Part shown: positions 34,651-38,019 of the stretch, piece by piece | Layout: each line of letters starts with the position of its first letter | Numbering within the stretch: position 1 is the stretch's first letter | DNA from: Minisyncoccia bacterium | GTDB lineage: Bacteria > Patescibacteriota > Minisyncoccia > SW-4-49-11 | Assembly: GCA_044356725.1 (NCBI GenBank) | Contig: JBIKVS010000003.1 | Span: 4,735-68,734, forward strand | Direction of reading: 5' to 3' | DNA: 64,000 bases | The notes under the pieces: model-generated | Database searches by the model: none | Told to the model about the DNA's origin: nothing | Seen by the model: only the letters and a program-made list of their open reading frames with translations | Translations under genes and position numbers: made by a program

Positions 34651-36552
34651 TTAATCCAGAGTACCGTTGGAGTTATATTTAGCTATAAAGGAATCTGTTC
34701 CTCCTATACTAGTTAGCTCTTGAATAATGCCACCTTGTCCAAAATTAGATAAACCTTGGAAATAACCTACTACTAAAACATTACCATCTATATCCACATC
34801 AACGCCTCTACCAGAGTCTGCACCTGATCCACCAGCTCTCCTAGCCCAGGCTAATGTTCCATTGGCATTATATTTTGCTATAAAGGCATCTTGTGCTCCT
34901 GCACTAACTAATGATGTCTGATTAGATTCACCTTGACCAAAAGTTGCCGTACCCTCAAAGTATCCAGTTATTATGGAACTTCCATCTGTATTTATGGCAA
35001 TATCAATAGCTAAATCTCCTCCATTTCCTCCAGCTTTCTTAGCCCAAGCTAATGTTCCGTCTGAATTATATTTAGCTACATATATGTCTGCTTGTACTCC
35101 TGTACTGACTAATGTTGTTTCATTTGACTCACCCTGTCCAAAGACTGCTGTCCCCCAGAAAAATCCAGTTACTATACTACTCCCATCACTATGCATACCT
35201 ATATCTCTAGCCCAGTTTATATCTGCTCCTATTGACAAGACTTTTTTTGCCCATATAATACTTCCATCTGAATTGTATTTAGCTATATAGCTATTATAAG
35301 TTCCTGAGGCAGTTAAAATTGTCTGATTAGGGTCACCCTCACCGAAAATAACAGAATTAGTGCTAGCAAACTGTCCTGCAACAACAAATGTTCCATCTAT
35401 ATTATTACTAATTCCATATCCCCATTCCCAAGAATTACCACCTATTCTTTTAGACCAGGCTAATGTACCATTAGAATTATATTTAGCTATAAAGGTATCT
35501 GTAGCACCTCCACTAACAAGAGTAGTAGCATTGGCTTCTCCCTGTCCAAAGACTGCTGTCCCCTCAAAGTATCCAGTTACCAAAGCACTGCCATCAGAAT
35601 TAGCAGCTAATCCGAAGCCATATTCTCTTTCACCAGTACCACCTGCTCTCTTAGCCCAAACTAAATTACCATCCGTAGCATATTTTGCAACAAATATATC
35701 TCTACTTCCTGCACTGACTAGAGTTGTGGCATTAGGTTCTCCTTGTCCAAAGACTGCCGTACCTGTAAATGAACCTGTTACAATACTTGTCCCATCTGCA
35801 TATCCTATAATATAGTTACCCCCATAATCTTCACTAGTACCACCTGCTCTTTTGGCCCATGCCAAAGTTCCACTGGGATTATATTTAGCTATAAATATAT
35901 CTCTACTCCCTGCACTGACTAAAGTTGTAGCATTAGGTTCTCCTTGTCCAAGGATAGTAGTACCTTCAAATGAACCTGTAACTAAAACACTACCATCACT
36001 TAACTTAGAGACCCCTCCACTTTTATCCAAACCACCAGATCCCCCAGCTTGGACTAGAAAAGTTTGAGTTGGAGTTATAGTATTGATAACCAAATCTTGC
36101 TCTAATTCTGCTTTATTAGCTCTGAGACTAATCTGATTATTCGAGTCTTTAGCAATTTCATAACCTGTTTCTCCAACTATTGTATCGGTATCTTTGGGAA
36201 TTTCACTTAAGTATGTAGGGACCAACACTCTTAAATCTATCTTACCATCACAGTATCCTGTACTCGGTAGTGTATCTTCTATAGTAAGATTGCCTGTATC
36301 ACATATCTCTATATATGTATTAGTAGGTATGTTTAAATCTACAAATCCCCTATTAACTGCATTATATTGCTGTAATGCATTATAGATATCATTAATTGAG
36401 ACTTGTCTCTCAAGATTTCTAGATTGTGAGATTTGTCTACTAGGATTTATAGCTACTAGAACAATACTAGATAATATACCTATTACAACTATGGTCAAAA
36501 GTATCTCTAATAATGTAAATCCTTTATTACTTATCTTATTATATTTATTCAT
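34651..36552 (-). CDS. Prepilin-type N-terminal domain fused to SBBP-like beta-propeller repeats (large pilin-like adhesin candidate)
   Basis: Leader [31 protein letters not shown]; the C-terminus has about ten repeats of ...[28 protein letters not shown].AGG..., matching the SBBP beta-propeller repeat pattern. Confidence 0.65.
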   Translation of the reverse strand: [633 protein letters not shown]

Positions 36553-36613
36553 ATTATTTTATTATTAATATATTTTGTAGTATATAATTCTTTTTTATAA
36601 AATACAATAGATA

Positions 36614-37894
36614 CTATCTAATTACACATCTAAAGCCATGTGTAGGTAAAGAGCATGTAGTATTACAAGGGCCAATTGAGAAAACTCCAGCTCCTTCTTG
36701 AGTCGAATCCCAACCTCCTGACCATGAACCACCTCTCATCCAATTAGAGATCTGAGTTGAGCTACTAGGAGAATGACTTATTAATTGTCCTATATTATTA
36801 GAGCTGTTCCAAGCTATATTGCTAGGTCGATAATAATCATAGTATAATATTCCATTACTGATAATATTATTAAATTCTACTCCAGCCCAACTAATTTGAT
36901 TGTTTGAATAAGGCATATCTTTTTGTTGAATAGTATCTGTAGTCCACTCCCATAGATTACCACTAATATCCCAAATAGTTTCCCCATTACTTAATATATG
37001 TGTTCTTTTTTGCTGCCATCCATTATTAATACTATTCCCTGTATCTTTATATCCCAAATTATCATCTGTGCTAGCTTCTAGAGCTGTATTCGGATTATTA
37101 TCACTATGTCCTCTCCAAATCCCTCCATTACCAATTTCGTTTACTGGAGTTGGGATTGGATTATACCAGTTATTAGATACCGATTCTATATTTCTAGATA
37201 TAGTCATACCTTCTACATTAGTCATTAAACTAGCTCCTGCATTAACACAATAACTTGCAGCCGTTGCTTGATCTATATTAGCTATTGGATACCCAGTAGC
37301 TACACTGGCTATAGTTCTACCATTAGCTGCTGTAGTGGGGGTGGTATTATTTGCTATAGTATTGAAACCAGTATTTGGAGTTGTTAAACCTACAGTTGGA
37401 CTATTGATAGCTACTGCTTTAGCTTCGTATTTCATCACACAAAAGTCTTTGGTTTGATATAGGCTGTTTCCGGGTACTTTTATATAACCTGTTGGACAGC
37501 TGAAGTTTCCTGCTGTATCTGTTGTATTGACATAGACTCTACCATCATTCCCTCTTGCTACCGTATATGTGGTACTACTTGGTATTGCGGATACATATTC
37601 TGGTATTAAACTACTTAGGTTTATACAGTCTGGTGTATTTACTGTATTACTACATACTTTCCTTTGTACTCCATCTAGTCCTGCTGGGTAATTACCTGTA
37701 TCTATCAATCTCTGTTGTAATGCTTTCTCTATTGTATTCTTATCGCTATTTATTGCTGCTTGTCTTGCTTGGTTTATTTGTCTATTTGGATTTATGGCTA
37801 CCAGTACTATTGCCGCTAATATTCCTATTGCTGCTATTACTAATAATATCTCTAGGAGGGTGAAGCCTTTGTTGGCTTTTATATTTCTATTCAT
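36614..37894 (-). CDS. Prepilin-type N-terminal domain fused to an FGE-sulfatase-like (C-type-lectin-fold) domain
   Basis: The ORF track extends to 37978 (TTG start). The likely true start is the ATG at 37892-37894, giving the leader [30 protein letters not shown]. C-terminal [42 protein letters not shown] and a terminal HGFRCVIR; paralogous to the C-terminus of 18845-20848. Confidence 0.6.
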   Translation of the reverse strand: [426 protein letters not shown]

Positions 37895-38019
37895 ATGTAT
37901 GAGTTTATTATTTATAATTTTATTACAGTCTTTTCTATATCTATTTAACATTATACCTCCCCCCCAGATTTTTGTCAAATTTGGAGTGTGCTGATGTATG
38001 TATAGTTAATATAATAATT

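Follow-up and report, generated by a model that had tools for sequence, protein, structure and literature searches.

The window analysed here is a stretch of 64,000 nucleotides (64 kb) from the genome of a Minisyncoccia bacterium (contig JBIKVS010000003.1, positions 4,735 to 68,734). Its G+C content is about 31%, and almost every gene in it is on the minus strand. Our subject is a pair of adjacent minus-strand genes within it. Gene A is an open reading frame (ORF) at 34651–36552, 633 residues long; gene B adjoins it on the same strand as an ORF called at 36614–37978 from a TTG and, as redefined below, occupies 36614–37894 and specifies 426 residues. An initial annotation, made from the letters alone, had placed two adjacent ORFs here, and both are found at those positions. 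Each gene encodes what we identify as a modular type IV pilin, that is, a pilin module followed by a C-terminal domain foreign to the pilus. In gene A this domain is a seven-bladed SBBP/delta-60 beta-propeller; the assignment draws on matches to N_methyl, SBBP and DUF5122 above threshold, on full-length homologues and on an AlphaFold 2 (AF2) model with a predicted local distance difference test score (pLDDT) of 90.8. In gene B it is a head with a C-type-lectin fold, assigned from the ORF itself, from matches to N_methyl and TIGR02532 above threshold, from more than 885 homologues of equal length and architecture and from an AF2 model of pLDDT 81.6.

Where does gene B begin? The initial annotation suspected that the TTG at 37978 over-extends the gene and that the ATG at 37894, which gives a 10-residue leader, is the better start. 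Position 37978 is in fact the first base of the −35 box of a sigma-70-type promoter, TTGACA-17 nt-TATAAT (37950–37978, minus strand), which matches the consensus at 12 of 12 positions and would serve both genes. The 58 aligned homologues of gene B share the leader consensus MxxxxKxxxKG|FTLLE, and the JGI protein P0001, 99% identical to gene B, is called in the 426-residue form. On these two grounds of comparison we conclude that translation of gene B starts at ATG 37894, so that the suspicion was justified. The methionine of HMNRNIK, which this ATG encodes, is moreover conserved within the over-extended call P0012. Another candidate, the ATG at 37951 with a GGAGG upstream, was rejected: it overlaps the −10 box, the corresponding residue of P0012 is not methionine, and Shine–Dalgarno sequences are rarely used here. 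The GGAGG carries little weight because a Shine–Dalgarno-like motif lies within 25 nucleotides upstream of just 3 of the 53 genes in the window. The sequence that precedes the starts is A+T-rich, and translation initiation in the window appears, from this survey of starts, to be largely independent of Shine–Dalgarno pairing.

The two genes are separated by a spacer of 61 nucleotides in which neither a consensus promoter nor a consensus terminator was found. Downstream of gene A, and upstream of the promoter of groES, lies a terminator-like hairpin followed by a U-rich tract (34592–34628, minus strand). Its RNA folds with −18.2 kcal/mol (z = −4.19), and none of 200 shuffled sequences folded equally well; its A+T-rich stem explains why it escaped the scan for consensus terminators. 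Given the promoter at 37978–37950, the promoter-free spacer, this hairpin and the separate promoter of groES, the pair has the appearance of a two-gene transcription unit complete in itself. The groES promoter is itself a perfect TTGACA-17-TATAAT (34585–34557, minus strand). It is followed at 34523–34549 by an inverted repeat, TTAGCAGTC-N9-GACTGCTAA, that resembles the CIRCE element (controlling inverted repeat of chaperone expression) with three mismatches against the consensus; hrcA and grpE lie at 57680–58907. An Rfam scan of the window returned tRNA-Phe only.

Both N-termini carry the class III signal G|FTLLE, with Phe at +1 and Glu at +5, and they fit the pattern of such signals, in which a short basic leader closes with Gly and some 20 hydrophobic residues come after the cut. 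The initial annotation had called these signals canonical, and the profiles bear this out: N_methyl scores 23.8 bits for gene A and 24.4 bits for gene B against a gathering score of 21.2, and TIGR02532 scores 28.5 and 28.0 bits, respectively, against a cut-off of 16.3. In gene B the leader peptide (37865–37894, minus strand) is predicted to be cut by prepilin peptidase after Gly10, leaving Phe+1 and Glu+5, and residues F11, T12, L13, L14 and E15 are invariant among the 58 homologues. The mature pilin module follows as residues 11–130 (37505–37864, minus strand), and is delimited by the AF2 model, by invariant columns and by profile matches in the Protein Data Bank (PDB), where pilins and GspG were found. 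It is predicted to consist of an alpha-1 helix (residues 13–66) and a small beta-sheet of three short strands (within 78–124), and its Cys81 and Cys90 are invariant in the alignment. In gene A the leader and pilin module together comprise residues 1–165 (36058–36552, minus strand), with Cys84 and Cys101, a predicted helix at 14–66 and strands at 81–145. Modelling, proposed as a check in the initial annotation, thus predicts the lollipop shape of pilins in both proteins. With domain boundaries near residue 130 in gene B and near residue 165 in gene A, the proposal that pilin N-termini here bear grafted C-terminal modules stands.

Two small tandem pilins on the plus strand, at 21083–21613 (176 residues) and 21753–22253 (166 residues), share with gene B an identical N-terminal segment of the mature alpha-1 helix (G10–Q40). 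Over the pilin module gene B is 45% and gene A 38% identical to the 176-residue protein. By their sequences, the two small pilins are probably the major subunits of the pilus.

What is mounted on the pilin of gene A? Residues ~166–633 (34654–36057, minus strand) contain seven repeats of 65–69 residues, each marked by the motif [FY][IV]AKY, and the repeat region extends over ~468 residues. The module had been put at some 590 residues and roughly ten repeats, so its size was overestimated. Its family was rightly named: both SBBP (PF06739) and DUF5122 pass their thresholds and the propeller is closed, which places the domain among the SBBP/delta-60 beta-propellers. An NCBIfam model of LipL53-family SBBP proteins matches partially (E = 3.9e-30; 104.9 bits against a cut-off of 400). 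Full-length homologues that combine pilin and propeller include P0121 (100% identical), P0122 (82%) and about 12 more (45–76%). The propeller alone occurs in thousands of secreted proteins of many phyla, often together with type IX secretion system (T9SS) sorting, PKD or FG-GAP domains. Unlike LipL53-family lipoproteins and T9SS-anchored SBBP proteins, gene A has a pilin stalk in place of the lipoprotein or T9SS anchor. The gene A propeller resembles the C-terminal propeller of CylK, the only part of CylK that aligns; gene A lacks the further, N-terminal domain that this enzyme has. We looked for a variable face of the propeller among close orthologues, where the variation proved to be scattered in no clear pattern.

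The head of gene B (residues 131–426; 36617–37504, minus strand; motif GFRCV) raises a different question, since the databases label such domains as being of the formylglycine-generating enzyme (FGE) type. The Pfam profile FGE-sulfatase (PF03781), suggested as a check in the initial annotation, gives a divided answer: gene B itself scores 21.9 bits, below the gathering threshold of 23.3, and most of its more than 885 homologues carry the domain in precomputed annotation. When the model of the head was compared with known structures, the best match was TaqVP (5vf4), the variable protein of a diversity-generating retroelement (DGR) of Thermus aquaticus, at a score of 17.2 with 214 residues aligned. 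There followed SUMF2 (1y4j) at 13.7, PvdO (5hha) at 13.0, PorK (9mzu) at 12.7, TvpA (2y3c) at 12.5, Mtd (1yu0) at 12.1, EgtB (4x8b) and OvoA (8khq) at about 12, and various ordinary C-type lectins at about 6. The ranking came out alike when PDB sequences were searched with a profile made from the head only (TaqVP, E = 6e-7; SUMF2, 8e-5; true FGEs, ~0.1). Only profiles worked: a single-sequence phmmer search of the head against the PDB returned nothing at E ≤ 10. The authors of the TaqVP structure describe DGR variable proteins as having the FGE-subtype C-type-lectin fold (PMC6328139), and the gene B head lies on the same scaffold as TaqVP, TvpA and Mtd.

Could the head nevertheless be an enzymatic payload on the pilus, generating formylglycine or acting as an oxidase or sulfoxide synthase in the manner of EgtB and OvoA? 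The catalytic triad of FGE was taken as defined in PMC6328139, and as criterion for the catalytic pair we used human C336/C341 or bacterial LCHDSYC, directly following RGGS[YW]. In the alignment to 6muj and 2q17 the catalytic-cysteine segment RGGSYLCHDSYC of bacterial FGE faces non-cysteine columns of the head family, and neither gene B nor any parseable family member (0 of 55 and 0 of 28) has a C-x4-C after RGGS[YW]. The invariant cysteines of the head are others: C133, C152, C216 and C423. Because of this missing pair, the head is, as far as residues and model can tell, an FGE-subtype C-type-lectin fold and not an FGE. The initial annotation had anticipated as much in preferring a lectin-fold binding module to an active enzyme. 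The fold is shared with FGE (SUMF1). Gene B differs from SUMF1 and from its inactive paralogue pFGE (SUMF2) in lacking the catalytic cysteine pair, in its sub-threshold PF03781 match and in its predicted extracellular position on a pilin. EgtB and OvoA require an additional, DinB-like iron-binding domain; the Pfam families detected in gene B are N_methyl and FGE-sulfatase, and no DinB-like domain is among them. Moreover, inactive SUMF2 is matched far better than the true FGEs, and the hypervariable site described below sits at the position of the FGE active site, which fits binding over catalysis. An enzymatic payload is therefore extremely improbable.

How widespread are such proteins? Gene B has more than 885 homologues, under the names Minisyncoccia, Parcubacteria or Paceibacterota, and N_methyl and FGE-sulfatase (precomputed PF07963 and PF03781) are combined in most of them. 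For genomic context we used 85 loci, 80 from species-representative genomes and five fetched earlier, with viral copies from IMG/VR kept separate; pilin–head fusions make up 36 of the best 80 loci in the species-representative genomes. The same fusion is thus found widely in related genomes, and the supposition that an FGE-like fold on a pilin is unusual has to be given up. The head alone occurs also in Bdellovibrionales, Oligoflexales, Bacteriovoracaceae and Nanoarchaeota (Bdellovibrionota/Oligoflexia: loci L052, L054, L067–L072, L075–L077, L080, L081 and L083; Nanoarchaeota: L046, L057 and L084), where it sits on secreted, membrane-anchored or long multidomain proteins. These heads from outside the Patescibacteria (consensus CP.GY..VPG...FCVMKYEAK...RGG.W...GFRC) belong mainly to predatory bacteria and episymbiotic archaea, with varied N-terminal stalks; their occurrence there hints at a role in cell–cell recognition. 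A third copy of the head, 41% identical to gene B residues 114–426 (E = 1e-65), is found in the window itself, at the C-terminal end of a 667-residue protein (18845–20848, minus strand). The stalk of this protein is fibre-like and its N-terminus is a membrane anchor, with no pilin signal and no Pfam match; the local G+C content is raised to 0.378. The same head on differing stalks, in the window as in the Bdellovibrionota and Nanoarchaeota, fits an exchangeable binding head.

Neither architecture is new. We take IPR005532 to be the SUMF domain and IPR013431 to be the delta-60 repeat. In their Dataset S1, Raynaud et al. (2021; PMC8179133) list N_methyl with the former (IPR012902-IPR005532) for eight proteins and with the latter (IPR012902-IPR013431-IPR013431) for four. 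Many of the modular pilins in that catalogue come from bacteria of the candidate phyla radiation, and the modular pilins PilB and PilC of Streptococcus sanguinis are adhesins (PMC8179133). Both architectures being already described, genes A and B add members to them. The contribution of the present analysis is to place the pilin-borne ‘FGE’ domain on the scaffold of DGR variable proteins, to predict its binding loop and to note that one related pilin appears to be diversified by a DGR.

Where on the head would a ligand bind? Among the 58 pilin-fused homologues, column entropy is highest in residues 384–419, at 2.09 bits; the remainder of the head has 1.03 bits and the pilin part 1.16. This loop, together with the conserved end GFRCVIR (residues 420–426), is encoded at 36617–36745 (minus strand). 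It contains a lineage-specific insertion of five residues and a C-x3-C motif (Cys410/Cys414), both common to the orthologue at locus L004. Its homologous counterpart is the variable region (VR) in relatives that DGRs target: the VRs of eight of these (L021, L022, L035, L051, L070, L109, L110 and L111) map to gene B residues ~384–426. The coincidence of hypervariability with these VRs supports the loop as a binding surface, and we predict that the gene B head binds through residues 384–419.

In some relatives the diversification is of the retroelement kind. At 5 of the 85 genomic loci a reverse transcriptase (RT) with the DGR hallmarks IGNLTSQ and YMDD adjoins the homologue, and all five have a repeat, 100–124 nucleotides long, of the 3' end of the gene, whose mismatches are nearly confined to adenines in the putative template. 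One of the five, L021 from Saccharibacteria, is a pilin fusion (N-terminus ...QRG|FTIVELLVV). In L021 and L035 the template repeat is oriented as the target gene, with the RT on the opposite strand and its start beside the template, unlike the usual co-oriented arrangement of template and RT. On IMG/VR contigs the same head occurs in a further protein, 1090 residues long (L107–L112), and three of the five copies fetched (L109, L110 and L111) have an RT and a template repeat downstream. From sample to sample this protein differs essentially only in the VR, at scattered positions (for example, RGGPWSAGTSAGVFAAGLSSGPSNVGSAVGFRC and RGGLWYYGPIAGVFAATLYYGPSDVSSSVGFRC), which by sequence is a clear case of ongoing diversification in the head family. 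Two papers name pilin-type domains as DGR targets only in passing; one of them, a 2024 survey, counts a GspG-type pilin domain among the rare domains of such targets (PMC11661182).

Is gene B, then, an active DGR target, whose loop is overwritten through mutagenic retrohoming with a template repeat and an RT elsewhere in the genome? The best structural and sequence match of its head is a DGR variable protein, the loop equivalent to the VRs is its most variable part, and the five genomic and three viral loci just described, a pilin fusion among them, indicate that adenine-specific exchange occurs in the family. Gene B thus has the C-type-lectin fold and the C-terminal variable segment of a DGR variable protein; the template repeat and the RT are what the window lacks. 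A sensitive blastn search with 36614–37000 against the whole window found no template repeat, only the paralogous gene at 19000–19210. A six-frame motif scan of the window for RT ORFs (IGNxxSQ, YxDD) of at least 150 residues found none, the Pfam scans of the window contained no RVT family, and Avd is likewise missing from the window. The loop has a G+C content of 42%, against 56–66% in true VRs, and the A+T-rich sequence after it shows no evident GC-rich homing site. When metagenome contigs were scanned for the exact 18-mer GAGAGGTGGTTCATGGTC, there were 20 matches, and neither blastn nor tblastn linked any of them to gene B. Among 50,697 GenBank phage records the head had no tblastn match. 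A DGR lies within 10 kb of only 1 of the 36 pilin fusions among the 80 loci. The head rides on a pilin and not, as in DGR variable proteins, on a phage fibre or lipoprotein. We consider it very unlikely that gene B is an active target. With no repeat and no RT ORF in the window, a low loop G+C content, an empty metagenome scan and a DGR near so few of the fusions, we conclude that gene B uses a DGR-type scaffold whose loop most likely evolves by ordinary mutation.

What might these two pilins do? We consider it probable that genes A and B, in a patescibacterium of the Paceibacteria/Parcubacteria type, form one unit encoding two modular type IV pilins with grafted ligand-binding modules that confer specificity in attachment to a host or substrate. 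The mechanism is inferred from type IV pilus biology and two precedents, the S. sanguinis pilins and the propeller-bearing PilX2 of the patescibacterium Nanosynbacter lyticus TM7x. A prepilin peptidase would cut the leader of 10–11 residues after glycine, and the alpha-1 helix with its Glu5 would allow polymerization by the PilB/PilC machine. The subunits would thus join pili built mainly of the small pilins at 21–22 kb, and the bulky modules could be exposed at the tip or thinly spread over the fibre. In that position they may bind surface glycans or proteins of a host cell or substrate and thereby determine what is attached to.

The comparison with S. sanguinis PilB (vWA) and PilC (lectin) extends to the class III signal, the small pilin module and the bulky C-terminal module. 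It differs in that the modules here are an FGE-subtype C-type-lectin head and an SBBP propeller instead of vWA and concanavalin-like domains, and in that the pilin modules resemble the putative major pilins. PilX2 of TM7x is needed for efficient binding to the host and not for extrusion of filaments (PMC11623550). Compared by description, PilX2 with its C-terminal propeller and the lectin-like PilX1 are patescibacterial pilins with a proposed role like that of genes A and B; PilX2, however, is reported to have a non-canonical signal peptide (PMC11623550) and resembles PLL-type lectins, whereas gene A has a canonical signal and a CylK/SBBP-like propeller. The proteobacterial tip adhesins PilY1/PilC likewise place a seven-bladed propeller on a type IV pilus for adhesion, as proposed for gene A, but there the propeller belongs to a non-pilin protein, whereas gene A is itself a pilin and has no PilY1-type Pfam match.

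Would such proteins enter a filament at all? The main rival holds that the class III signal serves only to anchor or export them, as stalked surface binding proteins akin to a pseudopilus or bindosome, with no extended pili. Display without a pilus is evidently workable, since the same head also occurs on plain N-termini of the signal-anchor or signal-peptide type and a delta-60 propeller protein of 1027 residues nearby is simply membrane-anchored; nor were PilD, PilM/N/O or PilT found in the window. The assembly machine is nevertheless represented in part: PilB (T2SSE, E = 4.6e-119; 51811–53544) and PilC (T2SSF; 50534–51805) are encoded ~13 kb from the gene pair, and the window holds six pilin-like genes besides A and B. 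Glu+5 and an alpha-1 N-terminal segment shared residue for residue with the putative major pilins are features needed for filament assembly and not for anchoring, and the propeller-bearing pilin of TM7x works together with its pilus. We therefore regard mere anchoring as unlikely.

Several observations weigh against a role in pilus-borne attachment. Besides the membrane-anchored alternative, no prepilin peptidase (Peptidase_A24) was found among the ORFs of the window in the Pfam scans, the FGE-sulfatase match of gene B stays below threshold, and its AF2 model is less confident (block means 58–65) in some blocks of linker and loop, a section of the specificity loop among them. A further one comes from close relatives. 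At loci L004 (8396–9925) and L005 (3040–4569) the orthologue of gene B carries two in-frame TAA codons, both GAA → TAA and identical in the two independent samples. Because of these nonsense codons the function of gene B would be dispensable at least in the L004/L005 population, and they point to a recent inactivation there.

Are genes A and B themselves then decaying or non-functional remnants in a variable slot? Close relatives are syntenic with the window yet differ exactly at these surface-protein genes, and slot occupancy varies among them. In L002 and L003 an FGE-type pilin lies between ftsW and htrA, where the window holds the 1027-residue protein; L004 and L005 lack this 3.2-kb delta-60 gene and keep the pilin pair between an RNase-H-like gene and groES. 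With an FGE-type pilin in that place in L002 and the gene absent from L004, the ftsW|htrA junction is therefore a variable surface-protein slot. The 1027-residue protein (40875–43958, minus strand) contains ~13–15 delta-60/DUF5122 repeats (E = 6e-150). In L001 an FGE-type pilin occupies another slot, beside lon. Both genes of the window are intact, however, with a perfect promoter and a terminator; an intact copy, 99–100% identical, exists in another assembly, and every residue invariant in the family is kept. That they are remnants is highly improbable.

The L004/L005 orthologue has one more peculiarity: in its pilin module it agrees with gene A (70% identity) rather than with gene B, which indicates, on this comparison, an exchange of modules between the tandem pilin genes. 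Exchange among paralogues is conceivable for gene B too, since the window holds two heads and such swapping is seen against L004. That gene B is diversified in this way, among paralogous heads or pilin modules, or by a DGR acting in trans from another part of the genome, we regard as quite improbable. Were it so, ultrasmall episymbionts would mount a hypervariable head of the DGR or phage type on pilins, as a reprogrammable tip for host recognition.

How patescibacteria attach to their hosts is the main gap in the understanding of their way of life, and among attachment organs type IV pili have the best support. Genes A and B would supply well-modelled candidates for the subunits that determine specificity in a Paceibacteria-type genome. 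The database label ‘FGE-like’ is misleading for the pilin-borne domain, and the link to the DGR scaffold is what lets a binding site (residues 384–419) be predicted. The predicted loop offers a handle for binding assays and for reading the evolution of host range from metagenomes.

Other genes of the window belong to the same surroundings. pilB and pilC are adjoined by a histidine kinase and a response regulator, and at 46025–50525 and 55590–56584 they are flanked by further surface-protein genes, among them a 357-residue Laminin_G_3 protein in which no pilin signal was detected. The minor-pilin-like genes of this cluster lie at 55590–56024, at 56024–56584, at 49335–50525, which encodes a 396-residue pilin with a Laminin_G_3 module, and at 47102–48970, which encodes a 622-residue pilin with a domain that matches a ‘phage head spike fiber’ model (E = 6.8e-22).

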